In this document: positions 10,603-33,668 of the stretch, in pieces
How positions within the stretch are numbered: the first letter of the stretch is position 1
How the letters are laid out: the number at the start of each line of letters is the position of its first letter
DNA from: a virus
Lineage: Duplodnaviria; Heunggongvirae; Uroviricota; Caudoviricetes
Reading direction: 5' to 3' (one strand)
Virus record (IMG/VR): IMGVR_UViG_2703718791_000013
Length of the DNA stretch: 33,668 nucleotides
Translations under genes and position numbers: made by a program
Notes under the pieces: model-generated
What the model was told of the DNA's origin: nothing
The model's database searches: none
The model's input: the letters and a program-made list of their open reading frames with translations, nothing else

Positions 10603-10609
10603 TTTCCAT

Positions 10610-14904: not shown

Positions 14905-14989
14905 TACAATCGTTGCGGGTGCTTGAGGCTATCTGCTTCAGGCATTACCCGAAAAGCAGATAGAAGAAAGCCCCAGATAACATTACGCG

Positions 14990-15060: not shown

Positions 15061-15234
15061 CCAAAAGGTCAAGGAGAAGCAGGCTATGAAGCAGCAAAAA
15101 GCGATATTAATCGCTCTGATCGTCATCTGTTTAACCGTCATTGTGACGGCACTGGTAACGAGGAAAGACCTCTGCGAGGTACGAATCCGAACCGGCCAGA
15201 CGGAGGTCACTGTCTTCACAGCCTACGAATCTGA
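15028..15234 (+). CDS. mok: Mok-like reading frame overlapping hok, 68 aa
   Basis: ORF track. Overlaps the hok frame out of phase, as in hok/mok/sok loci. Confidence 0.5.
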   Translation: MLSIRRLASYRPKGQGEAGYEAAKSDINRSDRHLFNRHCDGTGNEERPLRGTNPNRPDGGHCLHSLRI

Positions 15235-15241
15235 AAGGTAA
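15086..15241 (+). CDS. hok: Hok/Gef-family type I toxin, 51 aa
   Basis: Hand-translated MKQQKAILIALIVICLTVIVTALVTRKDLCEVRIRTGQTEVTVFTAYESER, which has the Hok signature (TM helix, TRK-LCE-R core, AYES C-terminus). Below the ORF-track size cut-off. Confidence 0.8.
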   Translation: MKQQKAILIALIVICLTVIVTALVTRKDLCEVRIRTGQTEVTVFTAYESER

Positions 15242-15311
15242 GAGACCTGGCGGGGAGAGATCCTCGCCACTCTTCGTGTGTCAGGTATCCTCAATGCACC
15301 CTTTCCTCTCC

Positions 15312-15340
15312 AAATAAAAAAGCTCCCGAAGGAGCTTTAA
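15312..15340. terminator. Bidirectional intrinsic terminator (aaagctcc-cgaa-ggagcttt)
   Basis: Hairpin flanked by an A-run and a T-run. Ends the hok transcript on + and the minus-strand late operon (stop at 15358) on -. Confidence 0.5.
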
Positions 15341-17320: not shown

Positions 17321-18910
17321 TTACTTAATAAGCAGCGGTACGCCCTGGATACGACGGGCTACGCCAGTCGGGCAGCAGGCCCAGACTACTTCCCATTTAT
17401 CGAATTCCGCCTGCGTAACTTTCAGCACATACGGTTCTGTACCGTCAGCATCAGGATCACGAGGAGCCACCAGAGCGCCGGAGGCGACAAAGCGATCTAA
17501 AAGTTTGGTCATCCCTTTAGTCAGGCCAGCCGCAGTAATACCGTCCGGGCTATGCTTCATCTGTCGGGCTAACTGGACAAAGAAACGGCTGATTGCATTC
17601 ATCAGGGATGGGACGTGCTGGAAGTGCAGATAGTTATCCTGCGTGCAGCAAGTTAAAGCATCGTCGATGATCATCTGGCCAGAGGTGCCAACAGATACTT
17701 TATTGAGACGGCCCTTGACCATTGCTTCTTCGTCCGGGGTATCTTCCGGATACAGCGGTTGAATTGACGCACGAGCAATGACGGCACGTTCTTCACCAGC
17801 CGGTGAGTAATGCCAACCGCCGACATCAGAGTTTTTCTTGACGCCACGAGCTTTCGCCGCATACGCCACGCCAGACAGACCAAAGACCACACGGGATTGG
17901 GTCCATTTGTCTTTGCAGGAGAACGGGTAGTGATAGACAGCACAGCTTACATAATCGGTACCAAGTAAACCGGTATCTTCAACAGCAGAGATCGCTTCCG
18001 TGTACGTCAATGTCGGTTTGACATCAAAGAAGCCATCAATCAGGCGATCTGCACAGATTTTACCTAATGCGGTGATAGCCGCATTGTCATAGCAGCCCAG
18101 GCCAAGAACAGCGGTGTACATGTACGGCGCATTATTCAGCACTTTAACCGCACGCAGGTACGCAGCGGTTGAGATTTTCGACTGATCGCCGTTGGTACCG
18201 CCAGTGAACGCCAACGATTTTTTGTTTGTTACTTTCGCTGTCGAAATCAGCTCTTCATTAACAACCGCGCGCAGATATTTAGAACGGGCTTCCAGAGCCG
18301 TAGGCAGATAACACAAGCGGCCCATGTCATCTTTCGCTTCTTCCGCCAAAGACACAGTGTGTGTCTCCAGGGTCGTTACCACGCCGAGCGAAGTCGTCTG
18401 GGTCAGTTTTAAGAGGAAGCGTTCATTACCCGCGCTGTCCGCTGTTGCCGTTTCGATGGTTAACTCACGGGTAGGTGAAATACACGGATCACCATCATCA
18501 ACGTAGATAGCAAAGGCTTCGCCACTATCAAGTTCAATTTCAGAACCGTATGGCAACGCACTGTAAGCCGGTTCGCCTGATTCATCGAACATAATAATCG
18601 GGAACTTCGCATCATCCGGAACAGCGCGAACAACATAACCAGACGTTTGCTGAATAGCTTCGTATACATGGCGAATTGGTTCGAACTGTGAGCCGGAAGA
18701 CGGCTTCAGCGGTTCGCCGAGAACATCTTCGTAATTGGACTCAGTAACCGCAAGAACAGTAAACGGCTTGCCACGCGCAAATACGCCAATACCAGCCCAT
18801 AAGCTGCTATTTAATGCAACACCGGTAGATAACGTCGCATCGGCATTGATCGGGCTAACCGCGACGCCGGATGCATTACCTAATGACTGTTGAATTGAAT
18901 ATTGAGACAT
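17321..18910 (-). CDS. Probable contractile tail sheath protein, 529 aa (P1 gp22-like)
   Basis: ORF track. Size and position downstream of the major head gene. Assignment by P1 gene order, not motif-proven. Confidence 0.5.
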   Translation of the reverse strand: MSQYSIQQSLGNASGVAVSPINADATLSTGVALNSSLWAGIGVFARGKPFTVLAVTESNYEDVLGEPLKPSSGSQFEPIRHVYEAIQQTSGYVVRAVPDDAKFPIIMFDESGEPAYSALPYGSEIELDSGEAFAIYVDDGDPCISPTRELTIETATADSAGNERFLLKLTQTTSLGVVTTLETHTVSLAEEAKDDMGRLCYLPTALEARSKYLRAVVNEELISTAKVTNKKSLAFTGGTNGDQSKISTAAYLRAVKVLNNAPYMYTAVLGLGCYDNAAITALGKICADRLIDGFFDVKPTLTYTEAISAVEDTGLLGTDYVSCAVYHYPFSCKDKWTQSRVVFGLSGVAYAAKARGVKKNSDVGGWHYSPAGEERAVIARASIQPLYPEDTPDEEAMVKGRLNKVSVGTSGQMIIDDALTCCTQDNYLHFQHVPSLMNAISRFFVQLARQMKHSPDGITAAGLTKGMTKLLDRFVASGALVAPRDPDADGTEPYVLKVTQAEFDKWEVVWACCPTGVARRIQGVPLLIK

Positions 18911-18970
18911 AACTTTCCCTGTTATGCGCCCCGCACGGGGGCGCTATGTTAAACGGAGAACTTCCCCTGA

Positions 18971-20677
18971 TTACTCAGAGTCACCGGCATCAATCGTGTC
19001 GCCGCTAATGAAGTTAAGCCCGCCTTTTTTGGCCATTGTCAGCGTTACACGAGTGAAGTAATCAGCGCCGTTGCGTGGGTGCATATCGTTGATAGCCGAA
19101 CCCCACAGCGTGGTACGGTTGACCAGCGCCGGAGTGGTCGGATGCTGGAACGGGATGGCCGGGACAGCATCACCAGTCACGAAGCCTGCTTTACCCGGAT
19201 TTTCATCACGGACGTAGCACAGCACATCCATCGAGCTGAACTGAATGTTCTCTGTCGTTAAGTTCTTACAAATACCAGCAGGTACTTCGTACACTTTCAC
19301 GTTACCGAACAGGGTACCGATGTAGTGAACATACGGAGTCTGGATATAGTCTTCGGCTGGCTGGAAGAAATCCTTCGGCAACTGTTTGAAGAAAGATGCT
19401 GCATCAGCACCAGCAAACATCCCCATCGCACCAGAAGATTTAACGCGCTCAATAATGTCGCGATATACAGTCTGGAATTTGCCACGAATGATGGTTGCCC
19501 ATACATCAAAGGACTGGTTAACCGGCAGAGCGATGTCAAAGGTGTCGGTCGCAAGAGTACGCCAGATCATGATGCGAAGACGCAGCATATCCTGTTCATG
19601 AGACAGGTATTCCTTCAGGGTGCGGAACTGTAGGGAACCCAGGTCCAGACCAAATTCACGCTGTGCTTCATACGCCGCCTGTACCGTGTGCTCAGCCGCG
19701 ATAACGAACTGGCTTGGGAACAGGGTGTATTTCTTCATTTCGTGGTTGATCAGCGGGATCAGCTCAGGAGCGGCTTCAATATTGATTTCCGTCTCAATTG
19801 CGATCTCAGTGCCTTTATCCGGCGCTTTGGAGAACGACAGGGCAATCTGACCAATGTTGTAGTTCAGAGAGCAGGTAACAGTGATTTGCTCACCAGCAGC
19901 ATTAGTAAACGAGTGAAGTAGGCTGCCGGAACCGTTATCAACAACAGACTTAATACGGTTAACGTAGATATTAGTGCGACCTTTTCGGATTGGTACATTC
20001 TGGCCTTCGAAGTCTTCCATCTTGAAGGTTGCGGTTTTGCTGGTGCCATCGGAGCTTGCCACCAGCACATAGCGGCGGCGTAACTGGCTGTACACACCGA
20101 CGGATTGCATGTCCAGAACATCACCAGCAGCATAAGAACCAAAAGAGGAACCTGCCACGTTAAAGACTTCATAGATGTCGGACTGGTCACGCGTAACCGG
20201 AATGAAGGTACACGCATCAGCGGTAGCTGCCCCCAACTGAACAGGCAGGATCATCGCGAGGAATAAAGGCAGACGCATAACACCGTCAGAAACGCTCATC
20301 ATCTCTGCTGCGACGGATTCCAGCATCGCTTTATTAGTGGCATCCATGCTATTGCGGGTGGACTCAATCAGGCAGTTTTCCAGCGTCTGGTGGCAGGAGG
20401 CCAGAATTTCCGGACGCGGCATAGATTTATGTGCTGCGGCGTAGTCAGCCAGTGCACTTGCCCACGCTGTAGCGATTTGAGCGGTGGCATTATCAGAGAT
20501 ACCCGCAAAAACCGGGTCTTTACGTGCAGCTTCAAGGATAGATGCGGCACGCGCGGCATCATCTTTAATGAATTGGTTATCAGTACCGAACTGCGCAGTG
20601 CTTGCCCAGCCAAGCACAGCTTTAGAGCGTTTTGCGATATCTGCAATACGATTCTGGTATTCGCGTAAGTTACTCAA
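18971..20677 (-). CDS. Probable major head protein, about 568 aa (P1 gp23-like)
   Basis: ORF track gives 18971..20698 beginning at a TTG. I prefer the in-frame TTG at 20677, which is preceded by AAGGAAG. The start is uncertain. Confidence 0.5.
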   Translation of the reverse strand: MSNLREYQNRIADIAKRSKAVLGWASTAQFGTDNQFIKDDAARAASILEAARKDPVFAGISDNATAQIATAWASALADYAAAHKSMPRPEILASCHQTLENCLIESTRNSMDATNKAMLESVAAEMMSVSDGVMRLPLFLAMILPVQLGAATADACTFIPVTRDQSDIYEVFNVAGSSFGSYAAGDVLDMQSVGVYSQLRRRYVLVASSDGTSKTATFKMEDFEGQNVPIRKGRTNIYVNRIKSVVDNGSGSLLHSFTNAAGEQITVTCSLNYNIGQIALSFSKAPDKGTEIAIETEINIEAAPELIPLINHEMKKYTLFPSQFVIAAEHTVQAAYEAQREFGLDLGSLQFRTLKEYLSHEQDMLRLRIMIWRTLATDTFDIALPVNQSFDVWATIIRGKFQTVYRDIIERVKSSGAMGMFAGADAASFFKQLPKDFFQPAEDYIQTPYVHYIGTLFGNVKVYEVPAGICKNLTTENIQFSSMDVLCYVRDENPGKAGFVTGDAVPAIPFQHPTTPALVNRTTLWGSAINDMHPRNGADYFTRVTLTMAKKGGLNFISGDTIDAGDSE

Positions 20678-20728
20678 TTTACTCTTCCTTAAACACAAGG
20701 CACTTGTGTGAATCCCTTTTCGGAAGAG

Positions 20729-20750
20729 ATTTTATTGAAAGTCACTTGTT
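20729..20750 (-). promoter_or_regulatory. Candidate late promoter AACAAGTGACTT-N4-TAAAAT
   Basis: Third copy of the shared late-promoter-like motif, upstream of the head/sheath operon. Confidence 0.3.
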
Positions 20751-20809
20751 GACTTTCTCGTGACAAGCAATTTTTTTATTTTTTTCGGGAGTAGGGGCGG
20801 AAGGTAAAA

Positions 20810-20905
20810 TCCAAGGTGAAATCGTGGCGATTTCACCTTGAAATTTTAGATGGATTTACTTTAAAAACAGTAGGTTAATAGTGAAATTTGAATGGCGAAA
20901 GTTTA
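20810..20905. promoter_or_regulatory. parS: parS partition site: heptamer/hexamer boxes flanking an AT-rich bend region
   Basis: GTGAAATCGTGGCGATTTCAC at 20816-20836 (ATTTCAC and TCGCCA boxes) and GTGAAAT...TGGCGA at about 20881-20897, separated by an AT-rich stretch (putative IHF site). Lies just downstream of parB. Confidence 0.7.
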
Positions 20906-21904
20906 AGGCTTCGGCTTTTTATCGAGGCTCTTTCTAAGGATATGCCCAATCATCCTGTCGAGTTCTTCCTGTAGCTCTTTTGAAAGTCGATTAAACTCAT
21001 AAGAAAATGCACGGCCTTTCACGCGTTTCCTTGCAAAGCGATCCTTGTCCTCAAATTTCCATAATTCAGTAACTACGGACTTATCTTTAGAACCTTTATC
21101 CGTGAGTAGTGAGGCTTCCTTTGTTATCAAGCGCAGGATTTTATTTTTAACTTCATCTTCGGCCATTTCTTCAATGGATAAGATGTCGTTTATTTCCGGG
21201 GATATGTTTTGAATAAGCTGATCAAACTCTAAATTCTTGTTCCCCATTTCGTCGCCAACAGCACAAAGCGTTTTGTAGTCCGAAAAGGTTAATTCCGACT
21301 GCACAGGGAAAAGGGCGACTAATTCTTCCGGAGCACTCGCTGCCTGGAGAGCACGCGTGACCTTCGCCTGAGACAGCCCTTCTTTGGCTGCAATATCCTT
21401 CTGACTCATCCCATCATTTTTCATTCGCATCAAACGCAGACCTATTTCTCGAATGCTGTGCTGCAATGCTGTCTGAACGTCTTTCGCTAAATTTTGCGCT
21501 TCCTGAACGCTGATCTCCTGGTCCGTGACTAAAACCCGCAACCCTACGTTCTCTAAGATGGCAGAAGCTCGACGCCGGGAACCATCCAAAATTTCAATTT
21601 TCCCTGTAGCCCGTCTAACACCTATTGCAGGGTAAAATTGCTGATGCTTAATAGTGCTTCGGATACTTTTTAATGATTTTGGCGTAAGAGATGCCTGGTC
21701 ACGCCCGTTGTTATGCTGATCAACAAAGGTATCGCTTTCTACCTGGTTCGGAGGTATTACCTCTTCAATAAATGTGGCCTGGCGACCAGTTGATAACTTG
21801 AATACCTGCTCGACTCGATCGCCAGAGGCTGAAGAACTATCAAATCCGCTTAATATTGAAGGATTAAGGGTTCGCCCAATTGTTGGTCTGTTTTTCTTTG
21901 ACAT
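20903..21904 (-). CDS. parB: ParB partition protein, 333 aa
   Basis: ORF track. Downstream of parA and adjacent to parS. Size matches P1 ParB as I recall it. Confidence 0.85.
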   Translation of the reverse strand: MSKKNRPTIGRTLNPSILSGFDSSSASGDRVEQVFKLSTGRQATFIEEVIPPNQVESDTFVDQHNNGRDQASLTPKSLKSIRSTIKHQQFYPAIGVRRATGKIEILDGSRRRASAILENVGLRVLVTDQEISVQEAQNLAKDVQTALQHSIREIGLRLMRMKNDGMSQKDIAAKEGLSQAKVTRALQAASAPEELVALFPVQSELTFSDYKTLCAVGDEMGNKNLEFDQLIQNISPEINDILSIEEMAEDEVKNKILRLITKEASLLTDKGSKDKSVVTELWKFEDKDRFARKRVKGRAFSYEFNRLSKELQEELDRMIGHILRKSLDKKPKP

Positions 21905-21920
21905 GGGGGGTTCTTACTCC

Positions 21921-23117
21921 TCAGTTAGATCTGATAAATTCAATACGGTCAAAAACTGCTTTAGCAAAATCTTCCGCGGCAATTCGCGCGTTCTTCAATG
22001 CATCAGCACTACCAACATACGTTGCCGGGTTAGCTGAAATAACAGTGTCAAAAGACTCGCCGCAACGTTCAAAACCGTCAAGGCGAGGGAGGACGACATC
22101 GAGCATATCCCCACCGAACACTTCTTTAGCCAGGCTATGGCAATACTTATGATCTGCCTTGTTACTCAACTTGGACATAAAACCAATGTTAGTCGCAAGC
22201 TGGCACTCGCAGCCTTCATCCGAAATGAGTTTTACCAACTCAGGAAGGCGGGCAACGTATTTAAGCGATGAGTGGAAATCGACAGTTGCTGGCGGCAGAG
22301 GTGTAAACAGTATATTGGCCGAGGCCAAAGCATTTTTCAGGAAGGCGTCAAGGTGAGGACCACTATCAACGAGGATAAAGTCATAATCGCTCTTCAGCTT
22401 ATCAATCACATTTTCTTTCAGGACAGCATGGATGTTCTGACCCGGTAGATGCTCATTGCACAGCTCTCTCCAATCGGATGCAATAAAGGCATCGTCAATC
22501 GACGCAGGCATAACGTCAACCCCAGGTACAACAGAAGGAACAATAAACTCCTCTAACAGCTCTTCACGGCTTACATTCTGCAACATAGCCTGTGCAGATG
22601 TTGCGTTTACGATACCAATAGAGTGTTTATGGCTTAAAAACATCGTTGCGGAAGATTGCGGATCAAGGTCAATAACCAGAATCCTTAAATCCTCCATAAG
22701 AAGATGAGGGTGAGCACGCATTGCATGCGCCAGAGAAACCGTCGATACAGTTTTTGACACACCGCCTTTAAGATTGGAGATGAAAATCACATACGCTTCG
22801 CTGTAGCGATCCCGGTATTTTGGCACTCCGCGATGTTCATATATGTCAATGATGTTCTGAATTGACATCGCATATTTCATTGAAGAGCCAGCAGGGCGTT
22901 TATCGAAAACATAACCCTTTTCTTCCATTTCACTTACGGCATAGTCAACGTTCGCTCGAGTCAGTAGAGGCAATTTTGCCAGTGCCGCTTTCGCATAGAC
23001 CTGGTAAAACTCGTTCGCGTGTAGCTCATCCTTTTGCAACTGTACTTGTTCAGTCAGAACATTGAGCATTCTGTTTGCTCTTTGAGCAACCTTGTGAAGC
23101 TGGCTGGAATCACTCAT
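21921..23117 (-). CDS. parA: ParA partition ATPase, 398 aa, deviant Walker A
   Basis: ORF track. Walker-type motif in NLKGGVSKTVSTVSLA. N-terminal extension typical of type Ia ParA. Confidence 0.9.
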   Translation of the reverse strand: MSDSSQLHKVAQRANRMLNVLTEQVQLQKDELHANEFYQVYAKAALAKLPLLTRANVDYAVSEMEEKGYVFDKRPAGSSMKYAMSIQNIIDIYEHRGVPKYRDRYSEAYVIFISNLKGGVSKTVSTVSLAHAMRAHPHLLMEDLRILVIDLDPQSSATMFLSHKHSIGIVNATSAQAMLQNVSREELLEEFIVPSVVPGVDVMPASIDDAFIASDWRELCNEHLPGQNIHAVLKENVIDKLKSDYDFILVDSGPHLDAFLKNALASANILFTPLPPATVDFHSSLKYVARLPELVKLISDEGCECQLATNIGFMSKLSNKADHKYCHSLAKEVFGGDMLDVVLPRLDGFERCGESFDTVISANPATYVGSADALKNARIAAEDFAKAVFDRIEFIRSN

Positions 23118-23390
23118 CGAAAGACATCCTTTATGCTGTATTTTTGAATTTAATTAAAAATGCTGCATAAAATAATAATGTATGCGTAGATGCTTGTACA
23201 TAGCATTCTCTGCATGCTTACTCCTTTGCCAAGTGTGTCACAACATGCTTTGGCATCCTCCACGCATAAAGGACGCGGATTTCTTCTACGTTCAGGTTGT
23301 AGCCTGAATCATTTTGGTGATTTCCTGCTTCAATGGGCAGCCAAGCTTCACTCTCTATCAACTGGTGAGAACGGCTTGCCCGGCAGCTTC

Positions 23391-23675
23391 GATGTGTGCT
23401 GGAGGGAGAATAAAAGTCTAAGATGTGCGATAGAGGGAAGTCGCATTGAATTATGTGCTGTGGAGGGATCGCTGGTATCAAATATGTGTGCTGGAGGGAA
23501 AGGCAGAGAATTACATGTGCACTGGAGGGAAAAGCGGATGGACAGATGTGTGCTGGAGGGAAAGTCTGGGCAAACTGAGGGGCGTTCCCCTCCAGCGCAC
23601 ATCAAAAACAGGAAATTGGACAAGCCTTCCCGGCAGCACACATCTTTTTAATGCGGTTTCCCTCCAGCACACACT
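23391..23675. repeat. incA: incA: nine 19-bp RepA-binding iterons (GATGTGTGCTGGAGGGAAA family), six in one orientation and three inverted
   Basis: Iterons read at about 23391, 23422, 23451, 23483, 23512, 23543 (forward) and 23580, 23625, 23655 (reverse). Confidence 0.8.
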
Positions 23676-24535
23676 TATTCGGGGAGTTTCAGCTTTGGAT
23701 TGCGAGAATGGACGATTACAAAACTTTCCCGGCCTTTCTTCTCAATAGAACAGTCGAGATAGCCGATTGTTTTAAGCTGTTCTATCGCTTTCTTAATGAT
23801 ACGGTTTTGCTCGCCAACAGCTGACTGCAAAGCCAGGCGCTCACGGATTCGCGCGAACGATAGCGGCAACGGGTTCTGCGGAAGGCTTTCGATGAAAGTG
23901 TAAATGGCTTGTGCAGCTTCTTTCTTCGGAAGGGCACGCAAGGCGTGGTGTTGCAACAGAACGCGATAATCAAGCTGGAACAGCTCCCACAACTTCGAAT
24001 CAGCCTCCAGCTCTATCAGATCAAGGTCAGCATCAAAACGCCCGACCTTCAGCAGACCAGTCTGATAGCCGCCTTTAGCATCTTTTCCGCGCTTAAAAGC
24101 GATACCCTTGTTACGCAAGCGTCCAAGTGATTCATGAATGGTTAAACGCAGTTTCGCATCCAGACGTTTTGAGGGGAAACCACAGGCTTTAGCGAATTCC
24201 TGAAACGATAACTGGATGGTGTTTGAGGACAAGCCGTATTTGCTGAACGCGTAGATGACACCGATCCACGTTTTGAAATCAGTATCCATATCGAGTCGAG
24301 GACCGGTGATTTTAATATCATCGTAACCCTCGGCTTTAGCTATCTCCAGCTGGGAAAACGCTTTGGTGGCATCAATCTCTTTACTTTCTCCTTTGCTCTT
24401 TGATGGCTTCGGCACGAATACCCCCAAGCGCATCAACGCTACAGGCTGCACAGTGTTGTTTGAATTAACTGTTAGTTCTTTTGCCTTACTTTCAATGTCT
24501 GCGTAAAGAATATCGGAGATAAAAGATTGATTCAT
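23675..24535 (-). CDS. repA: RepA plasmid replication initiator, 286 aa
   Basis: ORF track. Flanked by iteron arrays on both sides. Confidence 0.85.
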   Translation of the reverse strand: MNQSFISDILYADIESKAKELTVNSNNTVQPVALMRLGVFVPKPSKSKGESKEIDATKAFSQLEIAKAEGYDDIKITGPRLDMDTDFKTWIGVIYAFSKYGLSSNTIQLSFQEFAKACGFPSKRLDAKLRLTIHESLGRLRNKGIAFKRGKDAKGGYQTGLLKVGRFDADLDLIELEADSKLWELFQLDYRVLLQHHALRALPKKEAAQAIYTFIESLPQNPLPLSFARIRERLALQSAVGEQNRIIKKAIEQLKTIGYLDCSIEKKGRESFVIVHSRNPKLKLPE

Positions 24536-24590
24536 ATTACTTTTTCCGAATTATGTGGATAGCTTTTATAAGTGGTGATAACTACCCAGG

Positions 24591-24815
24591 CTTTCCCGTC
24601 AGCACACATCCTATATCCCGCCAGCACACATTAGCAACCCGTCAGCACACATTTTTATCCCTCCAGCACACATCGTTTTCCCTCCAGCACACATCGCGAT
24701 ACACCTCTAAGCCAGACGTGGCGCGGCCTGCAACGATCAGGGATCTATATGGATCTAATTGGGATCTGTATGGACCTAATTATTGGATCTACCCAGTGGA
24801 TAATGTGGATAAGTG
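24591..24815. promoter_or_regulatory. oriR: five incC iterons, a cluster of five GATC sites and tandem DnaA boxes
   Basis: Iterons ...CCAGCACACATC at 24591-24696. GATC at 24736, 24743, 24755, 24767 and 24787. TGTGGATAA twice at about 24797-24812, and a further DnaA-like box near 24552. Confidence 0.8.
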
Positions 24816-24861
24816 AAAAACCGGCCACTGAGGACCGATTTCTGTGAAGAGTTGAAGCGAA

Positions 24862-25263
24862 TTAGTTGTCGTTTTCCGTACCTACTTCTTCGATCAACAA
24901 ACTACTTGTATAGATGCGTAACGTATCACCTTTGTAGAGGAATTGATAACCAACACCTCCTATGGCAGGGAGGTCGGGGAACATTTCAGAAGCAACCCCA
25001 GAGCAAATCACGGCGATACAGTCATCCCGCTGTACATCCTTACGCTCTGTACTCAAAGTTTGCTCTTCCCCGATTGCCTTTGTCATCTCCTCATCTTCGT
25101 ACGCAACAGGGATATATTCAATCGCATCAGGCGTTTTGATACCCAGTTCTTCAGCAATCTCGAACGCCTGTTTAAATTGATCTGACCCAGGATATCCAAC
25201 GGTAATACTCTCAATTTCGAACAAAGAAGTAGCGTTGTTTATTTCTTGTTTAACCGCAAACAT
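24862..25263 (-). CDS. Hypothetical protein, 133 aa (P1 UpfA position)
   Basis: ORF track. Confidence 0.45.
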   Translation of the reverse strand: MFAVKQEINNATSLFEIESITVGYPGSDQFKQAFEIAEELGIKTPDAIEYIPVAYEDEEMTKAIGEEQTLSTERKDVQRDDCIAVICSGVASEMFPDLPAIGGVGYQFLYKGDTLRIYTSSLLIEEVGTENDN

Positions 25264-25333
25264 GTTGTTTGTCCTTAGTGGCTTCCTGCCAAAGTAAAGT
25301 CATGAGTGTTGATATTACGATTTCTACAGTTGA

Positions 25334-25693
25334 TTAAATCTGCTCGCTGAGCTTTTGCTTCAGCAGATAACCTTCCAGCGGCCAGATTTTCTCAATGGCG
25401 TTCTTACGGGCCACCTTACGGCCAATCTCCGCGTCGAAATTTTTAGGGCTGGCACAGGCGCTTTCCCCGGTAACAATGAATCCATTGCACAGCACCAAGA
25501 CACAGATGGTCAGGCTACGCGTAGAGGGATGAACAGACAGCACCTCACGAACGCCTTCATGCGCAGCGCGAATGCCGTCAAAAGCTGTGAAATAATGCTC
25601 TTCGGCAATCACACTCTCGATGTGATCAGGAGTCAGGCGTGGTGCTGTTTTGCCTTTGGCCAGAATCTCTTTTTCAATTTCCATATCGGACAT
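25334..25693 (-). CDS. Conserved phage protein, 119 aa
   Basis: ORF track. Confidence 0.45.
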   Translation of the reverse strand: MSDMEIEKEILAKGKTAPRLTPDHIESVIAEEHYFTAFDGIRAAHEGVREVLSVHPSTRSLTICVLVLCNGFIVTGESACASPKNFDAEIGRKVARKNAIEKIWPLEGYLLKQKLSEQI

Positions 25694-25704
25694 AGTTTTT
25701 CCTT

Positions 25705-26037
25705 TTAGTTACCGCTGATAGCACGGTTGTAATCATTGACGTTGCGATTCTTCCTGTTAATCCCCATCAGCATCGTTTCTGTATCGAGGATATACGCTGG
25801 CAGATCATCAAAATATTCACTGCTAAACTCTGGCATCCTGCACATAAACGCACTTTTGGGGGCAGGGTGGTTAACCTTTGTCGGCGTCGGCGTTAAATTC
25901 GCTGATCGACTCCCGGAGCAACCGCTGAGTGTCAGCAGGAATGCGCTGGCGAACATTACCCGCCGCAACCAGTTGTTTCTGAACTTCTGCTTTTCGTTCC
26001 ATTTGCCTGTCAGCATACTTGGCTTGTTCTGATTCAT
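25705..26037 (-). CDS. Lipoprotein (lipobox LTLSGC); alternative start at 25956 gives 83 aa
   Basis: ORF track. Signal peptide MFASAFLLTLSG followed by Cys. The 5' part overlaps the 3' end of the next gene out of frame. Confidence 0.5.
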   Translation of the reverse strand: MNQNKPSMLTGKWNEKQKFRNNWLRRVMFASAFLLTLSGCSGSRSANLTPTPTKVNHPAPKSAFMCRMPEFSSEYFDDLPAYILDTETMLMGINRKNRNVNDYNRAISGN

Positions 26038-26293
26038 TTTTCACTTCCTGGCTGTGAAAATGTTGATCTGCTTTGTTCATCGTCTCAATGGTCTGGTTAA
26101 GATCCATTATTGACTTATCACGTTCCTTAACAGCCTGATCAAGACTGCCAATTTTATCCAAGGCTTGCTTTAGCTGATGACGTTCCCATGCAAACCCGGC
26201 ACCAACAAGTGCGCAAATCAGAACAAGAACACCAGTAGCAGCAAGTTTCTCCTTCAAAGACAAAGCTGTTTTTAACGTAGAAAAGAATGACAT
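25871..26293 (-). CDS. Rz-like membrane-anchored coiled-coil protein, about 140 aa
   Basis: ORF track (25871..26320); start placed at MSFFSTL. N-terminal TM segment LAATGVLVLICALVGAGFAW, then a charged helical region. Confidence 0.45.
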   Translation of the reverse strand: MSFFSTLKTALSLKEKLAATGVLVLICALVGAGFAWERHQLKQALDKIGSLDQAVKERDKSIMDLNQTIETMNKADQHFHSQEVKNESEQAKYADRQMERKAEVQKQLVAAGNVRQRIPADTQRLLRESISEFNADADKG

Positions 26294-26332
26294 GTCTTCC
26301 TCCTGAAGAAAAATTATCAATGAAGTCCTTTG

Positions 26333-27121
26333 TTACTGTGCCGCTTTGTTTAATTCATCAAGAACAGAATCAGGAACCAAAGCGGCGACTGCGCTGGCTG
26401 TGCTGGCCTTATTTGCTGATGCTTCCGCAAGCGCGGTACCGATAGCATGGTTATAAGCAGTTATGGCTACGCTGGCGCTTTCCTTCGCTCGTTCATACTG
26501 CTGTTGCAATGCTGCTACCGGTACTGTTGTCTGGTCGAAAAAAGCACCAAATTGTTCAGTTGCTTCCTTCAGTGCTTCAACTTGTTGTTCTGTCAGTGCT
26601 GGTGGGGGAGTGACTGCGCCGCCACCTGAATCAGAGCCTGACGAGCTTCCTGAGCCTGTGTTAAGGGTCTGGTTAATGTCCCCCATAGCAGCGACTAAAC
26701 TCGACGTATTAAGCGCATTTACAGAGTCCTCAAGCGATTTCGTTGTAGTCGCGTCACCAATGGCAATAGAGATCGGCAGTTCTGAAACTTCTCGCTCATT
26801 AGCACGACAGTAAACATCCCAACCAATATCGAGTTGAAGGAGCATTGACAGATCAGCATAACCAGCCAACAGGTCCGCGTGCTGAGTTGCCAGCCCTCCA
26901 ATATTCGTTAAACCAGTTGCGGTTGTTCTGATCGTTGAAACATAGCTGGTAATAGTGTCGGGATAGACAATTGTATCCAGAATTAATCCGGTCAATTCTT
27001 CTGCAAGCAGTTTTGCTGTGTTAGCACTGTTTCGTGCCGATGTTATGGCACCAGGTGTTTTCATCCCACCGGCGGCGGACAATTTTTTATATGCGGATAA
27101 CTGGTAGTCTTTTTCCAGCAT
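26333..27121 (-). CDS. Hypothetical protein, 262 aa, Ser/Gly-rich linker
   Basis: ORF track (26333..27178); start placed at ATG 27121, which is preceded by AGGAGAT. Confidence 0.45.
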   Translation of the reverse strand: MLEKDYQLSAYKKLSAAGGMKTPGAITSARNSANTAKLLAEELTGLILDTIVYPDTITSYVSTIRTTATGLTNIGGLATQHADLLAGYADLSMLLQLDIGWDVYCRANEREVSELPISIAIGDATTTKSLEDSVNALNTSSLVAAMGDINQTLNTGSGSSSGSDSGGGAVTPPPALTEQQVEALKEATEQFGAFFDQTTVPVAALQQQYERAKESASVAITAYNHAIGTALAEASANKASTASAVAALVPDSVLDELNKAAQ

Positions 27122-27129
27122 GATATCTC

Positions 27130-27414
27130 CTAACTTACCTGAACCAGGCCGTCTCCGGCTGCAACGGTAGAGCCGCATGAAACAGGATCACCAACGCATA
27201 AGATCCCTTTCCCGTTGACGGTAAACCATGCCCTGGTTGATATAGCTTGCCCGCCGTGCGTGCTGTTCCCATCGGTATGCTGTGCATATTGCTTACCATC
27301 AACTAACACTTCGACTCCGTTGACTTTAAGTAGTGGTTCGCTCTCTACGGGAGGCCTGGATGGGAATCCTCCGTGCCCCGAACAAATGCTGTCTTTTGTT
27401 GCAATACTCGCCAC
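27130..27414 (-). CDS. PAAR-domain protein, 94 aa
   Basis: ORF track. Repeated PAAR-like segments DSICSGHGGFP and VGDPVSCGSTVAAGDGLVQV. Confidence 0.55.
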   Translation of the reverse strand: MASIATKDSICSGHGGFPSRPPVESEPLLKVNGVEVLVDGKQYAQHTDGNSTHGGQAISTRAWFTVNGKGILCVGDPVSCGSTVAAGDGLVQVS

Positions 27415-27495
27415 ATCACCACCAATGATTTGCTCTGATTTTCGTTATTTTAACTTAGGTTATTTGTGGTCTGTATGGCGTTTACTTATTACAAA

Positions 27496-27512
27496 ATTGC
27501 TCTAATAAATAT
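27496..27512 (+). promoter_or_regulatory. C1 operator (ATTGCTCTAATAAATAT) in the divergent region between the PAAR operon and uhr-hrdC-dmt
   Basis: One mismatch to the operator 17-mer; overlaps a TTGCTC -35-like hexamer. Confidence 0.55.
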
Positions 27513-27583
27513 TGTTTTTTATGTCGTGTTTTCGGTACCATTCAGCCATCGCCCTTCAATGGGCATTTGTTTGGAGTCGTCAG

Positions 27584-27868
27584 ATGCAGATGGAGCTAAT
27601 AAGCCGCAAGGAGTTCGATAGCCGTGTAACCAGCGGTGAACTCGACAACTTGCAGGCTATCAAGGTGAAAGAAGGCTTTTGCCTCATTGGGAATCAGAGC
27701 GGAACAAATCGCGTTTTTATGCTTCGCCGTACGGATTTGAAGCCATTTGTCTGGAAGAACGAAATTGGTCCCAGCTCATACGCTCAAACGAGGGGGTGCC
27801 ACAACCTGGCCTTTTTCTACAAAGACGAGCTTTCTGTGGTTGATATTCAAGGGTTACAACATGTTTAA
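27584..27868 (+). CDS. uhr: Small protein upstream of hrdC, 94 aa
   Basis: ORF track (27512..27868); start placed at ATG 27584 after GGAG. Named by P1 position. Confidence 0.45.
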
Positions 27869-28766
27869 GCACTGGAAAAACATTACTATTTATAAACTTT
27901 CTCGTGAGGCGGATCTGACCGACTTAGAAGATAAAAAGAAAATGATCCTTTTCACGCCATGCGGTAGTCAGGATATGGCCAAGTTCGGTTTTGTATCTCC
28001 ATTTGGTGATAATTCCGAAGTTATCGCTATGCATGGAAATGGTTTTATCCTTGTTGAAGCAAAGCGCGAAACAAAAATTCTTCCCCCGCCGGTTATCCAG
28101 CGAGCTATTCAAGAAAAAATTGAAAAACTTGAGCAAGAACAAGCGCGTAAACTGAAGAAAACAGAGAAGGACTCCCTGAAAGACGAAGTTCTGCATTCTC
28201 TTCTGCCACGGGCTTTTTCAAAGTTTTCTGTTATCCAGGCGATCTACGACGGTTCAACTAAACGTATCTATATCAATGCCAGCGCGCGGCAGGCAGAGGA
28301 TATGCTCGCGCTTATGCGTAAGTCTCTGGGTTCTCTTCCTGTTGTTCCCCTGAGTGTTGAAAATCCCATTGAATTAACGCTGACCGACTGGGTACGTGAT
28401 GGTAGTGCTCCACAGGGATTTCAAATGGGGGATGCGGCAGAACTTAAGGCAGTGCTTGAGGATGGCGGTATTGCCCGAGTGAAAAAGCAGGATTTGGGAA
28501 GCGATGAAATTTCCACACACCTGGAAGCTGGCAAGCTCGTCACTAAGTTGGCACTCGACTGGCAGAACCGCATTAAATTTACACTGGACCATAACTTCAG
28601 CCTTACCAGCGTCAAATTTGCGGATGAATTGCTTGAGCAGAACTCTGATATTGATAGTGAAGATGTAGCGCAGCGACTGGACGCAGATTTCTTCCTGTTG
28701 ACCAGTGAAATTTCGTGCCTGGTTGATGCTCTGGTAAATGCCCTTGGTGGAGAGGCTAAGCAGTGA
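27861..28766 (+). CDS. hrdC: RdgC-family recombination-associated protein, 301 aa
   Basis: ORF track (27747..28766); start [16 protein letters not shown] at 27861. Strong similarity over its length to E. coli RdgC as I recall it. Confidence 0.75.
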
Positions 28767-31027
28767 AAGAGCTGTGCTATGGATCTGTTTGCAGTGGAAT
28801 TGAAGCCGCGAGTATTGCCTGGGAACCGTTGGGTATGCGTCCGGCGTGGTTTGCTGAAATCGAGCCTTTTCCATCTGCCGTTCTTGCGCACCGCTGGCCC
28901 CATGTCGCCAACCTTGGCGACATGACAAAACTTGCCAAAAAAGTCCTGGCTGGGGAAATCGAATCCCCTGATGTGCTCGTCGGGGGAACACCTTGTCAGG
29001 CATTCAGTATCGCTGGATTACGTGGTGGGCTTGATGATGAGCGTGGCGCGCTAACTTTAAAGTATGTGGAGCTTGCAAATGCAATTGACGACAAACGGGC
29101 TGAGTCATTTCTCAAACCAGCCGTTATCGTCTGGGAAAATGTCCCAGGAGTCTTGTCATCGGCAGATAACGCCTTCGGATGTTTCCTTGCCGGATTGGCT
29201 GGAGAAGATGCGCCATTTGAACCAGGTGATCGACCTGAATCAGGAAAAAGTAACGCGTTCTGGCGGTGGGATGGCAAAACCGGTTGCCATGCTCCAAAGT
29301 GGCCACAGTGTGGTTGTATTTATGGACCGCAGCGAAAGGTGGCCTGGAGAATCCTTGATGCCCAATACTTCGGAGTGGCACAACGACGCCGACGCGTGTT
29401 TGTTGTCGCAAGTGCTCGAACAGACCTCGATCCCGCAACGGTACTTTTTGAGTTCGAAGGCGTGCGCCGGAATATTGCGCCGAGCCGAAAAAAGAAGGAA
29501 ATCGCTTCCGCCATTACTGCAAATGGCGCTGCAATCAGTGGCGAAAGCCTAAATCCATGCCTACACGCTGGCATGTCCCCCGGTATGAAATCGACGAAAG
29601 CCGTAAACGGTTTCAGGATGGCGGCATTTGGGGAATATATTGACGATGAAACCGCATCGACAGTAAAGGCAAGAGACTTTAAAGATGCCACTGACCTTGC
29701 CGTTTTTAGCAGCACAGGAGCAGGTTTTTGGTCAGAAGGGCATGGTACATTGCGGGCACGTGAGCAAGAAAGCCATGAGCATCTTGTTACATTGGCTTTT
29801 CCTGAGCGTATGAGCGGTACACAACATGCTGCAACTAAGAATACTTCACCATCTCTAATGGCTAAAAATCCAACAGCTGTTTGCTATGAAGTAAGAAACG
29901 CAGAAGTAGCTGTCCGCCGTCTTACCCCTGTCGAATGTGAAAGGCTGCAAGGTTTTCCTGATGGGCATACGTTGATCCCGACGGAAAAGCGTAAAAAAGT
30001 TAATTCAGATGAACTGGCATATCTTCGCAATCACTATCCAGATTTAAGCGAAGAAGAGGCCGCGATGCTTGCAGCTGACGGACCGCGTTACAAAGCGATC
30101 GGCAATAGTATGGCAATACCAGTAATGCGCTGGATTGGCGATCGGATTACTAAGGCCGTATGTCGGCAGAAAGAAGGAAGTGAAACAAAAGAGCGAAAAG
30201 TTAAACCAGCGGCAGAATTCGAACGGTCCATATTCAAATGGGCTGGTGGAAAATTTGGTGTTCTGGAACAAATCTTTCGCTATTTGCCAGAAGGGAAGCG
30301 CCTGATTGAACCTTTCGTTGGTGGCGGAGCTGTCTTCATGAATGCCGGATACCAGGAAAATCTGCTAAATGATGTGAATGCTGACCTGATTAACTTTTAC
30401 AAGACTCTGCAACGCGAGGCGCATTCACTTATCACTCTGGCACATCGTTTCTTCCAGGACTACAACACACAGGAAGGATACCTGGCAGTACGGAATGCGT
30501 TTAACAAACAAGTCTATGATGATTTACATCGCGCAGCGGCGTTTTTGTTCCTGAACCGACATTGTTTTAACGGATTGACGCGTTACAACCAGGCCGGTGA
30601 GTTCAATGTCGGTTATGGGAAGTATAAAACTCCGTATTTCCCATTACAGGAGATGGAAACCTTCCTCGGTGCGGAAGGGCGGTCTGAGTTTGTATGCGGT
30701 GATTTTGCAGCGGTGATTGAAGCTGCCGGAGAAGGAGATGTCATCTTTTGCGATCCGCCGTATGAACCGCTTCCAAATACAGAGGGATTCACGAACTATT
30801 CCGGTCATGACTTTAAGTTTGAAGAGCAAAAACGCCTGGTGTCTCTGTTGACGGATGCTCATCGTCGAGGTGCAAAGGTTCTCATTACTAACAGTGGCGC
30901 GCCAAACATCAGAGAGCTTTATCATGACAGTGGCTTCAGAGTGGAACCTCTTTTTGCCAGACGTTCTGTGTCTTGTAAGGGGGACACTCGAGGTGTAGCT
31001 CATGACGTTTTGGGTATATTGCTCTAA
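28763..31027 (+). CDS. dmt: Bifunctional DNA methyltransferase: N-terminal C5-cytosine MTase domain fused to a C-terminal Dam-like N6-adenine MTase domain, 754 aa
   Basis: ORF track, GTG start overlapping the hrdC stop. C5-MTase motifs [22 protein letters not shown] and ENVPGV in the N-terminal half. Dam motifs FKWAGGK and DPPY in the C-terminal half. Confidence 0.85.
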
Positions 31028-31047
31028 TAAATTTATTAGTGTAATAT
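31018..31047 (+). promoter_or_regulatory. Perfect C1 operator (ATTGCTCTAATAAATTT) within a 16-bp palindrome, coincident with a promoter (TTGCTC, 17-nt spacer, TAATAT)
   Basis: Operator is an exact consensus match and overlaps the dmt stop codon. CTAATAAATTTATTAG is its own reverse complement. The -35 and -10 hexamers are spaced by 17 nt. Confidence 0.65.
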
Positions 31048-31208
31048 CGCCTCAATGAATCGTGATTTATAGAGCGATTTAGCTGTTAGCCGCGACAGGC
31101 GCGGCGGTAAGCATGGCTGGGCCTAGTCCTCCCAGACAAACCACCGAGTTGCCAGGTTGACCATGCGCCTAAGTGGCAACCCCGAAGTGCGTTACGAGCT
31201 TCCAGTTT

Positions 31209-31234
31209 GCCCATCTTCGGGTGGGCGTTTTTTT
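31209..31234 (+). terminator. Intrinsic terminator (gcccatc-ttcg-ggtgggc then an 8-T run)
   Basis: Hairpin plus T-run about 180 nt downstream of the promoter at 31018-31047, with no ORF in between. Confidence 0.45.
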
Positions 31235-31415
31235 CAGGGTTTTCGTCATGGTTAGCGACTTTGCGGCGGTTTAGAAACTGACCATTAAAGTAAATGCAAA
31301 CGATGATCTGATGATGGTAGCGGCCTAAGAAGCCAGATGCCACGGGGTATGAGTCGTCCCCCGTCAAAAAATCGACCGCAGAGTGTCCCCGTCTGTGTAT
31401 TAGGGAACGGGGAGG

Positions 31416-31496
31416 CACAACAGGTAAGGGCGCTGGTGTGATTAACCAGATGAACGAGAAGGGGCCATCTGTTGGTCAGCGTCCTTTCCTGTTGCG
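31416..31496 (+). repeat. Long-stem hairpin element E (CACAACAGGTAAGGG ... CCTTTCCTGTTG family)
   Basis: Closing stem of about 18 bp with one mismatch. Followed by a T-rich run. Member of the five-copy family described in the findings. Confidence 0.5.
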
Positions 31497-31699
31497 TTTT
31501 CTTTTCAGCGTAACAGCGGTGCTTAACAGCACTTTGGGTACAGTTCCACGAATTTACGGGTATATCCCGTCATGCTGAAGGCGCTAATCACGCTGGAAGC
31601 CAGGGTTGTGCATCCCCTGTTACCGAATTGCAGCCAGGGCGCGGTGCGCCGAAAAGCATACGGAGGTGGAAGCCCTCGCCGGAGACGTACCCGGCAAGT

Positions 31700-31775
31700 G
31701 ATGGTGTAGCTCAGCGGTTAGAGCGGTTGACTGTTAATCAACGGGTCGATGGTTCAAATCCATCCACCATCGCCA
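31700..31775 (+). tRNA. tRNA-Asn (anticodon GTT), with encoded CCA
   Basis: Hand-folded cloverleaf: acceptor GATGGTG/CACCATC, D-stem GCTC/GAGC, anticodon stem GTTGA/TCAAC with loop CTGTTAA, T-arm GATGG-TTCAAAT-CCATC, discriminator G, CCA. Confidence 0.85.
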
Positions 31776-31777
31776 AT

Positions 31778-31853
31778 GCCGGTTTAGCTCAGTTGGTAGA
31801 GCGCCTGCCTTGTAAGCAGGATGTCAGCGGTTCGAGTCCGTTAATCGGCACCA
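31778..31853 (+). tRNA. tRNA-Thr (anticodon TGT), with encoded CCA
   Basis: Hand-folded cloverleaf: acceptor GCCGGTT/AATCGGC (one G-U), D-stem GCTC/GAGC, anticodon stem CCTGC/GCAGG with loop CTTGTAA, T-arm AGCGG-TTCGAGT-CCGTT, discriminator A, CCA. Only 2 nt after tRNA-Asn. Confidence 0.85.
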
Positions 31854-31854
31854 G

Positions 31855-31964
31855 CACAACAGGTAAGGGTATTTTGCGACGTCGGAGATCGCCGAGCTTG
31901 GCAGAGGGTTCGAATCCCTACGAAGTACCCTTACCGTTGTGATGAATGCGCAGGCTGATGCGCG
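31855..31964 (+). repeat. Long-stem hairpin element A, with an internal tRNA T-arm-like hairpin (GAGGGTTCGAATCCCT) and a 3' hairpin GCGCAGGCTGATGCGC
   Basis: Stem CACAAC-a-GGTAAGGGTA pairs perfectly with TACCCTTACC-GTTGTG. Starts 2 nt after the tRNA-Thr CCA. Confidence 0.5.
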
Positions 31965-32060
31965 AAAGACATTGCAGCTATTGCGGAAAAGAGCTGTTCG
32001 GCGGGGCAATTAAACGCCCGTGAGAGTCTGAAATAACCGCAAGCCGGAGATCAGCACCGG

Positions 32061-32142
32061 TCATCACAACACAACAGGTAAGGGCATTCTCCCTTATGGA
32101 GCTTGACTTAAATGCATCGAGTGCTCTTACCGTTGTGATGAA
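32061..32142 (+). repeat. Long-stem hairpin element B
   Basis: Outer stem TCATCACAAC/GTTGTGATGA (10 bp perfect) and inner stem GGTAAGGGCATTC/GAGTGCTCTTACC, in which the only two non-Watson-Crick positions are G-U pairs. Confidence 0.5.
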
Positions 32143-32273
32143 GTGCAGCTCTTTGAAGCAACCAGAAGATAAGCATCTGGCTTCACAACATAAACCGCAG
32201 GAACGACCAATAAACGGTAGTCCGTATGGAGAACACCCCGTTGAGGAAGAGGCCTGGCCGGAACCGTAACCGG

Positions 32274-32395
32274 CACTATAACGTTGAGAACACTGGCGTA
32301 ACGGGGTCATATCCCAATCTACGAATAAATGTTGCGTTGCAGCGTGACAACCAGTGTTCTCAACATTGTGGTGAATGCACAGGCTGATGTGCCGC
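32274..32395 (+). repeat. Long-stem hairpin element C (different stem sequence, same architecture) plus 3' hairpin GCACAGGCTGATGTGC
   Basis: 23-bp stem CACTATAACGTTGAGAACACTGG / CCAGTGTTCTCAACATTGTGGTG. Interior TAACGGGGTCATATCCCAATCTAC is shared with element D. The 3' hairpin shows compensatory changes relative to element A. Confidence 0.5.
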
Positions 32396-32552
32396 AACTA
32401 CAGTAGTGCGCGCTTTGCGGGGCTTGCTACAACCCTGTGTCGGAGTTCAGCACCGACCATCACAGTTTGATTCTCTGGCATGAGCATAACGCTGAAATAA
32501 GTCCAGTCTGGTGCGGCCCGATCACCCGCCGTTAGCTCCACGAAACGGAGCA

Positions 32553-32645
32553 CGTAACAGGTAAGAGCATTCTCCTGTAACGGGTTCATATCCCAATCTA
32601 CAGGTCCACCAGGAATGCTCTTTCCGTTGCGGTGAATGCGGCTAA
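32553..32645 (+). repeat. Long-stem hairpin element D
   Basis: Stem GGTAAGAGCATTC(tc)CTG / CAGGAATGCTCTTTCC with outer CGTAAC/GTTGCG. Interior TAACGGGTTCATATCCCAATCTAC. Confidence 0.5.
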
Positions 32646-32737
32646 GCGCACGCGGAACAGTTAAAACAATCCTCCTTAATGGTTAAACATTCCGACGTTA
32701 ATTGTTAACTGGTTAACGTCACCGGGAGGCACTCGGC

Positions 32738-32757
32738 ACCGCAATCTAATAAATATG
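32738..32757 (+). promoter_or_regulatory. Degenerate C1-operator-like site (GCAATCTAATAAATATG) upstream of tciA
   Basis: Retains the CTAATAAAT core but the 5' half diverges from the operator consensus. Confidence 0.3.
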
Positions 32758-32780
32758 TCACTTTTATTGAGGGATAACCA

Positions 32781-33215
32781 ATGTTCGGTAAATTGTTCGG
32801 CAAGAAAGTCGCTTCTGCAAAAGTAGAGCTGAAAAAAGTTGAGAATCGCGATCTGATGGAGGCCATCATCGGTGGCTGTTTGTTGGTGTCTGCCGCTGAT
32901 GGTGAAATCGAAAAAGAAGAAACAGCGAAACTTGATCAGCTTGTCCGCTCTAATCCGCGTCTTAGTCATTTTGGTAACGAAATTACTGCAACAATTACCC
33001 GCTTTACCGAGCAACTGGAAGCTGGCTTCCGTGTTGGTCGCATGAATATCCTTCGCGAAATTGAAGATATCAAAAACGATCCAAAAGAAGCGGAAGAAGT
33101 ATTCGTTAACATGCTGACAATTGCAGAAGCGGACGGTGAAATCGAGCCAGCAGAACACAAAGTACTGGAAGAAGTAGGCCGTCGTTTAGGTCTTCGTGTG
33201 GAAGATTATCTGTAA
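32781..33215 (+). CDS. tciA: TerB-family protein (tellurite-resistance-like), 144 aa
   Basis: ORF track. Two AADGEIE / AEADGEIE segments characteristic of TerB. Position matches P1 tciA. Confidence 0.7.
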   Translation: MFGKLFGKKVASAKVELKKVENRDLMEAIIGGCLLVSAADGEIEKEETAKLDQLVRSNPRLSHFGNEITATITRFTEQLEAGFRVGRMNILREIEDIKNDPKEAEEVFVNMLTIAEADGEIEPAEHKVLEEVGRRLGLRVEDYL

Positions 33216-33322
33216 TGGCAAGCAAGGCACGTATCGCAATCGCCATTGGTTTTCTCTTGCTGTCCGTGCTGGTGGATTTCACCAGCACAATCCTGTCAGT
33301 TTTATCGGACGGGGCGTTGTGA
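33215..33322 (+). pseudogene. Truncated membrane-protein gene (35 codons), reading frame ended by the TGA of the IS inverted repeat; probably a disrupted tciB
   Basis: ATG overlaps the tciA stop (TAATG). Encodes MASKARIAIAIGFLLLSVLVDFTSTILSVLSDGAL, then a stop supplied by the first three bases of the IS terminal repeat at 33320. Confidence 0.45.
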
Positions 33323-33668
33323 ACCGCCCCGGGTTTCCTGGAGAGTATTTTATCTGTGAACTCAGGCTGCCAGATCATTATTTCCGATGGAAGCATAATA
33401 AGCTTTTTCTGCTTCTGCCGGAGGAATATGGCCCAGCCTTTCCAGCAATCGTCGATTGTTATACCAGTCCACCCACGTTCGTGTGGCCAGTTCCACTTCT
33501 GTCCGGTTTTTCCAGCTATTACGGTGTATTACCTCCGCTTTGTAAAGACCATTGATGCTCTCAGCCATCGCGTTGTCATACGAGTCGCCAGTACTCCCTG
33601 TTGATGCCAGTAATCCGGCTTCCTTAAGCCGCTGCGCGTAGGCCAGCGATACATACTGAGAACCTTTA
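33320..33668 (-). mobile_element. IS3-family insertion sequence (IS629/IS3411-like end), right end only; remainder lies beyond the window
   Basis: Terminal inverted repeat TGAACCGCCCCGGGTTTCCTGGAGAGT at 33320, close to the IS629-type end as I recall it. Transposase C-terminus on the minus strand ends about 40 bp inside the repeat. Confidence 0.7.
33362..33668 (-). CDS. IS3-family transposase (OrfB), C-terminal part only
   Basis: ORF track shows 33362..33568, but the frame stays open to the window end. My translation reads ...GSQYVSLAYAQRLKEAGLLASTGSTGDSYDNAMAESINGLYKAEVIHR..., the DDE-region signature of IS3-family transposases. Confidence 0.7.
   Translation of the reverse strand, partial: KGSQYVSLAYAQRLKEAGLLASTGSTGDSYDNAMAESINGLYKAEVIHRNSWKNRTEVELATRTWVDWYNNRRLLERLGHIPPAEAEKAYYASIGNNDLAA

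Follow-up and report, generated by a model that had tools for sequence, protein, structure and literature searches.

An IS629-type insertion sequence interrupts tciB in the ban operon of a P1/P7-like phage-plasmid

Results

The window ends in the front part of a C1-controlled ban operon

The DNA analysed here, hereafter the window, is the whole 33,668-nucleotide stretch of the viral record IMGVR_UViG_2703718791_000013. In BLAST comparisons, it is collinear with a 40-kb stretch of phage P7 (AF503408) at 96-99% identity with a few mosaic replacements, and the collinear span includes tail-fibre gene S, the immunity region (c4/icd/ant), kilA/repL, par, repA/oriR, hrdC/dmt and tciB. This collinearity and identity therefore mark the window as a segment of a P1/P7-like phage-plasmid of the Punavirus type. 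The mosaic blocks relative to P7 lie at 20847-23388, 9665-11179 and 24827-25701 and bring in a different parA/parB-parS type as well as other blocks; relatives that share an identical Dmt protein have at least two par types and at least two rep types. A sok antitoxin RNA of a hok/sok type I toxin-antitoxin system (Rfam, 114 bits) is present at 14917-15091 on the plus strand, and the segment that bears it (~14622-15316) has no P7 counterpart and stands in for the P7 segment (L008 18304-20130) in which rapA, rapB and upf52.1 lie. The left end of the window (1-330) lies within gene S; its first 218 bp, for which megablast gave no match in P7, contain an internal direct repeat of ~120 bp (e.g. 61-115 versus 181-245).

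The last 2.7 kb of the window constitute the front part of the C1-controlled ban operon (Table 1). Here, the 17-mer ATTGCTCTAATAAATTT is found without mismatch at 31018-31034 on the plus strand and its inverted partner, with two mismatches, at 31029-31045 on the minus strand; in the entire window, there are five sites of the C1-operator type compared to 0.16 expected. Two tRNA genes and an intact tciA follow. The tciA gene is 100% identical at the nucleotide level to genes of many P1-like plasmids, whose annotation names the product a tellurite resistance protein of the TerB family, and the same gene is annotated as tciA/terB in P1 and P7. For the structure of the operon transcribed from Pban, we followed the annotation of the P7 record; the gene order Op(ban), tRNAs, tciABC, tRNA and ban is found in P7, in P1 and in the near-isogenic relative L012 described below. 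Between the operator and the tRNA genes, at 31205-31234 on the plus strand, there is a strong intrinsic terminator-like hairpin with a GC-rich 8-bp stem followed by TTTTTTT. This hairpin is ~180 nt 3' of Op(ban) and the dmt stop codon and ~470 nt 5' of tRNA-Asn, is kept in L012 (12443-12472), and might act as the terminator of dmt or, within the ban operon leader, as an attenuator.

Table 1. Features at the right-hand end of the window
Feature	Position	Strand	Evidence
Op(ban), bivalent C1 repressor operator	31018-31045		17-mer and inverted partner; position of the annotated Op(ban[a]/[b]) of P7
tRNA-Asn	31700-31775	+	ARAGORN, Rfam; annotated also in P7 and P1
tRNA-Thr	31778-31853	+	ARAGORN, Rfam; annotated also in P7 and P1
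tciA, TerB family, 144 aa, intact	32781-33215	+	ORF list; Pfam TerB, E 2e-14
Truncated tciB, 35 native codons (33215-33319) and IS-supplied TGA (33320-33322)	33215-33322	+	ORF list, alignment, Pfam DUF3927
TTG, predicted left copy of a 3-bp target-site duplication	33317-33319		Last native bases before the IS; inferred
Right-hand 349 bp of a 1310-bp IS3-family element (IS629/IS1203 type), ending at the window edge	33320-33668	-	Nucleotide identity
Terminal inverted repeat IRR (orfB-proximal end)	33320-33344	+	Unique in the window, 0 mismatches
C-terminal 101 codons and stop codon of the OrfB transposase	33362-33668	-	Translation, NCBIfam, Pfam

The reading frame of tciB is cut after codon 35

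The ATG of tciB at 33215 shares its A with the TAA stop codon of tciA (ctgTAATGgca). Thirty-five sense codons later, the IS closes the frame with its own first triplet, TGA. The retained codons are identical in nucleotide sequence to those of P1 tciB and P7 upf69.4. In both phages, the intact gene is 165 bp long and encodes 54 aa, MASKARIAIAIGFLLLSVLVDFTSTILSVLSDGAL followed by VAVAVTLVWPIFKTASKDQ, and it is this second part, the C-terminal 19 of the 54 residues, that is lost from the stub. Consistently, the 35-aa stub matches Pfam DUF3927 with 48.1 bits (gathering cutoff 25) at profile positions 3-34 of 53 only, compared to 89.8 bits for the full P7 protein. With ~53 positions in the full-length domain (54-aa protein), the stub is a truncated member of the family, not an intact one. 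The remainder of tciB was not found elsewhere in the window.

With the identical codons 1-35, the TAATG overlap with tciA, and a position directly after tciA (TerB family) within the Op(ban) operon of a P1-like phage-plasmid, the stub agrees with P1 tciB and P7 upf69.4, and these features identify the interrupted gene as tciB. By contrast, the copy in the window lacks codons 36-54 and has a foreign stop codon, while P1, P7 and L012 are IS-free at this site. With 19 of 54 residues missing, TciB function has probably been lost.

The DNA downstream of codon 35 matches one end of IS629

We used the window from 32700 to 33668 as a megablast query against phage and plasmid collections. Query bases 1-620, i.e. 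up to 33319, match P7 with 99.8% and many P1-like plasmids with 100% identity in the features TerB/tciA and DUF3927/tciB; the match to P1 comprises query bases 21-620 with 99.5% identity. Query bases 621-969, i.e. from 33320 onwards, match elements annotated as IS629 OrfB or IS3-family transposase. In a three-way alignment, the window tracks P7 through ...GGGGCGTTG and then continues with the IS end TGAACCGCCCCGGGTTTCCTGGAGAG..., where P7 goes on with GTGGCAGTAGC.... To the base, this break in homology is also where a complete element of 1310 bp ends.

This complete element is present in E. coli strain 472 (contig L009). It has imperfect 25-bp inverted repeats and TTG/TTG flanks, and codes for OrfA (108 aa) and OrfB (296 aa), joined by a -1 frameshift that PGAP annotates as a "programmed frameshift"; the portion visible in the window represents the last 27% of such an element. 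The 25-nt sequence TGAACCGCCCCGGGTTTCCTGGAGA at 33320-33344 is found once in the window, with 0 occurrences expected by chance, and is the IRR of the strain 472 copy as well as of the copy in phage BP-4795. Within the strain 472 copy, the IRL end TGAACCGCCCCGGAAATCCTGGAGA matches this sequence at 22 of 25 positions. Across the 349 bp visible here, identity is 99.1% to the "IS629" copy of BP-4795 (host O84:H4) and 346/349 to the strain 472 copy, with three substitutions that are private and all non-synonymous. Identity to records of Stx-converting phages, which have no IS annotation on the matching stretch, is 95.5-96%.

On the minus strand, positions 33667-33365 are free of stop codons and code for 101 aa that include GDSYDNAMAESINGLYKAE and end in LAA, with the stop codon at 33364-33362. 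This OrfB fragment is colinear with the 296-aa OrfB of strain 472, from which it differs in three residues. It includes the catalytic E of the DDE triad (in AMAES) and a K seven residues later, and both D residues lie beyond the window. It matches NCBIfam transpos_IS3 at positions 283-369 of 369 (E 1.8e-27); the score of 96.6 bits is below the 160-bit whole-protein cutoff because OrfB is a fragment. The match to Pfam rve_3 (E 1.8e-12) is above the cutoff.

Based on these matches, we assign the element to the IS629/IS1203 type of the IS3 family. With the IS629/IS1203/IS3411 isoform group of E. coli and Shigella, it shares the terminal repeat TGAACCGCCCCGGG... and an OrfB C-terminus with the DDE glutamate. 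Because the end seen in the window is the orfB-proximal IRR, the IS is antisense to the ban operon. The copy in the window is closest to the BP-4795 and strain 472 copies and, because it diverges by ~4% from the matching stretch of the Stx-converting phage records, appears to be of another IS629 subtype. These figures fit the published IS629 subtypes, which diverge by roughly 4-5% (Rump et al., PMC3271280).

If the 35-codon frame were a natural short allele of tciB, the resemblance of the following DNA to an IS would be fortuitous. While such a small gene might seem to leave room for this, all uninterrupted relatives, which represent two allele types, encode 54 aa, the downstream 349 bp are 99.1% identical to IS629-annotated elements, and the inverted repeat motif has a chance expectation of 0. 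The IS identity, the alignment break, the repeat motif and the complete strain 472 copy refute the short allele, to which we assign a practically negligible probability.

The locus had previously been interpreted in a sequence-only reading as an IS3-family insertion at 33320 that truncates the gene downstream of tciA, probably tciB, and this observation is, as judged from the comparisons above, real and correctly read. The family assignment agrees with the 99.1% identity to IS629 elements and with the transpos_IS3 and rve_3 matches. The ORF list and the three-way alignment confirm that the terminal repeat starts with TGA at 33320 and thereby closes a 35-codon frame, and that this frame overlaps the tciA stop codon is evident from the ATG at 33215 in TAATG. 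The proposed transposase C-terminus on the minus strand, running to the window edge, corresponds to the 101 aa with GDSYDNAMAESINGLYKAE, and the name tciB holds up in the identity of codons 1-35 to P1 tciB and P7 upf69.4 and in the DUF3927 match. A suggested check, alignment to uninterrupted tciB of relatives, agrees with this reading: the identity ends at 33319, and P1, P7 and L012 carry a 54-aa gene. The IS end matches the IRR of a complete IS629-type copy. Only the start originally given for the feature (33196-33668) is arbitrary: an unrelated GTG frame begins there, and the features concerned begin at 33215.

A near-isogenic relative has the uninterrupted site

The exact 754-aa Dmt protein of the window was also found in ten long contigs of P1-like elements. 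One of them, L012 (GCA_048036735.1, contig DBFSOQ010000024.1), aligns to 14,557 bp of the window (18763-33319) with only 2 mismatches, and this match stops precisely at 33319. L012 then continues with an intact 54-aa tciB, tciC, a tRNA with the anticodon CAU (annotated as tRNA-Ile in P7) and ban, which encodes a DnaB-type helicase and lies ~470 bp 3' of tciB. Judged by this alignment, L012 is near-isogenic with the site uninterrupted and shows, better than any other sequence available here, what was separated by the IS. Because the flank differs from L012 by only 2 of 14,557 bases, the insertion can be dated as evolutionarily very recent.

Among the relatives with an identical Dmt, uninterrupted tciB genes of both allele types all encode 54 aa, and the slot may alternatively be occupied by the second tci allele type or by a Band_7 cassette. 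In L010, L011, L015 and L019 (~14020-15064), the latter consists of a 78-aa ORF and a 275-aa Band_7 (SPFH) protein between tRNA-Thr and ban, in the slot that corresponds to 32781-33320 of the window. Thus, the ban operon carries interchangeable small membrane-protein cassettes.

The junction is exact and appears to be private to this sample

The left junction was not found in phages, plasmids or complete E. coli genomes by BLAST, nor by exact pattern in viral, genome and metagenome contigs; the right junction predicted below, allowing a spacer of 0-8 bp, was likewise not found in viral, genome and metagenome contigs. Because the searched collections contain no junction matches, there is no independent copy of the allele, and the insertion allele appears to be private to this sample.

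The IS in strain 472 lies between the two copies of a TTG duplication (L009 2503-2505 and 3816-3818) preceded by CG (aCGTTG/TGAACC), and the junction in the window (gCGTTG/TGAACC) has the same five bases, CGTTG. This may be a coincidence or a weak local target preference; in the published analysis, IS629 generates duplications of 3-4 bp and has no sequence-specific target and no target consensus (PMC3271280).

We also considered that the breakpoint might be recurrent. An exact look-up of the 35-aa stub retrieved four short metagenome contigs with ends 1-2 bases beyond the insertion point: L004 1294-1399, L005 605-710, L006 541-646 and L007 451-557 (equivalent to window 33215-33321); four contigs are independent, with seven contigs in all. 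All four continue with the native G or GT and not with the IS, and the recurrent breakpoint was rejected. L007 ends exactly at a G/A polymorphism between the two tciB allele types (GTTGGT(G/A)GCAG), and L004-L006 end one base earlier. Because they continue with native sequence and stop at or next to this polymorphism, the four ends most likely reflect assembly-graph breaks, which the exact 35-aa query selected, rather than IS insertions. L004 and L005 look like recombinants of the two tciB allele types.

With its left end in the gene S repeat and its right end in an IS, the window has both ends in repetitive DNA, as often seen for short-read contigs, and a second example of the junction was found in none of the collections searched. 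Conceivably, a contig end could have been wrongly extended into a multicopy IS with none physically present in tciB. However, a mis-join is not expected to fall exactly on the terminal base 1 of an IS and to be followed by 349 bp of IS. Moreover, the native flank and the IS share only a few bases at the break (...TTG/TGAAC... versus GT in the native continuation) and, thus, there is no repeat at this position to mislead an assembler. The three private substitutions are also consistent with a specific, resolved copy. Altogether, we regard an assembly artefact as very improbable.

Discussion

Based on the data reported here, a 1310-bp IS629/IS1203-type IS has very probably inserted by simple transposition into the tciB gene of a P1/P7-like element. 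In this model, the IS, which as an IS3-family member would move by copy-out-paste-in, transposed between codons 35 and 36 of tciB and came to lie antisense to the C1-controlled operon of Op(ban), tRNA-Asn, tRNA-Thr, tciA, tciB, tciC, tRNA(CAU) and ban. The exact junction, both partners and the orientation are evident from the sequence itself: the orfB-proximal terminus, 5'-TGA..., is in phase with codon 35, and the IS end terminates the frame to give a 35-aa TciB stub. Beyond the window, we infer the other IS end to be followed by the TTG duplication and then by the remaining tciB codons, tciC, tRNA(CAU) and ban, as in L012. The predicted IRL flank reads (TTG)GTGGCAGTAGCTGTAAC... and the predicted right junction ...CTCCAGGATTTCCGGGGCGGTTCA/TTG/GTGGCAGTAGCTGTAACATTGG.... 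That the IS supplies the stop codon is not remarkable: since all IS629 ends begin with TGA, about one third of the insertions in this orientation within a coding frame will generate an in-phase stop.

The window ends 349 bp into the IS, and the rest of tciB is found nowhere else in it. The IS could therefore also be the border of a larger change such as an adjacent deletion or inversion, recombination between IS copies, or the end of a composite or cargo segment, in which case the IS would not be followed by the missing part of tciB and by tciC, the tRNA and ban. Many E. coli genomes contain several copies of IS629-type elements, at up to 49 places per genome, and these are substrates for recombination; P1-like phage-plasmids acquire IS-flanked cargo (PMC9603915). 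On the other hand, the junction is the exact IS terminus, as primary transposition predicts, the flanking 14.5 kb are virtually identical to the uninterrupted L012, which suggests a very recent single event, and simple insertion is the commonest outcome for IS629 (PMC3271280). We therefore consider a larger change unlikely, although it is the most probable of the alternatives.

If the insertion is simple, transcription from Pban must cross 1.3 kb of antisense IS, and this would weaken or uncouple expression of tciC, tRNA(CAU) and ban. Such a polar effect, which had been raised in the sequence-only reading, is plausible because of the synteny in P7, P1 and L012. When we scanned the antisense IS, the junction and the spacer between tciC and ban for promoters and terminators, matches were at chance level only: shuffled sequence contains terminator-like sites at least as often as the antisense IS does, one terminator-like hairpin, itself at chance level, lies inside the IRR (33329-33341), and no promoter-like site was found between tciC and ban. 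Being at chance level, these matches lend support neither to polarity nor to an outward promoter.

In P1 genetics, ban is dispensable in dnaB+ hosts, and the classical P1 "bac" mutants express ban independently of the repressor. In principle, the antisense IS might rewire the ban operon, either by cutting it off from the C1-controlled promoter or by a fortuitous outward promoter that would render ban expression repressor-independent and "bac"-like; we hold this to be improbable. Were ban and tRNA(CAU) cut off from the C1-controlled promoter, the phage-plasmid would be fully dependent on host DnaB. Either type of rewiring would change lytic replication or complementation of host dnaB, and might be reversible in a host that has an IS-excision enhancer.

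Because tciABC is frequently absent from P1-like elements, and with ban dispensable in dnaB+ hosts, the element should tolerate the insertion. P1-like phage-plasmids have eight hypervariable regions, tciABC among them, and nearly half of subgroup 1 lacks tciABC (PMC9603915). The arrangement resembles that of IS1 in P1 and of the IS1380/IS5-flanked blaCTX-M-55 segment in JL22 in the sense that a mobile element interrupts a non-essential gene of a variable region (PMC9603915). However, the IS family and the site are different in the window, and no cargo is visible.

Both components, i.e. IS629/IS1203 and P1 tciB, as well as the phenomenon of IS629 in prophage DNA are already known, and the insertion is biologically routine. 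IS629 copies in O157:H7 are found within prophages in 62% of cases (PMC3271280), and the copy described here likewise resides in a prophage-type element. In annotations, the appropriate label for the 35-codon ORF is that of a tciB pseudogene disrupted by an IS, and for the window edge that of an IS629-type element; the junction represents a clean strain-specific marker. While of little importance beyond annotation, the insertion adds one more example of IS629 targeting prophage DNA, and of the expendable tciABC slot in P1-like phage-plasmids.
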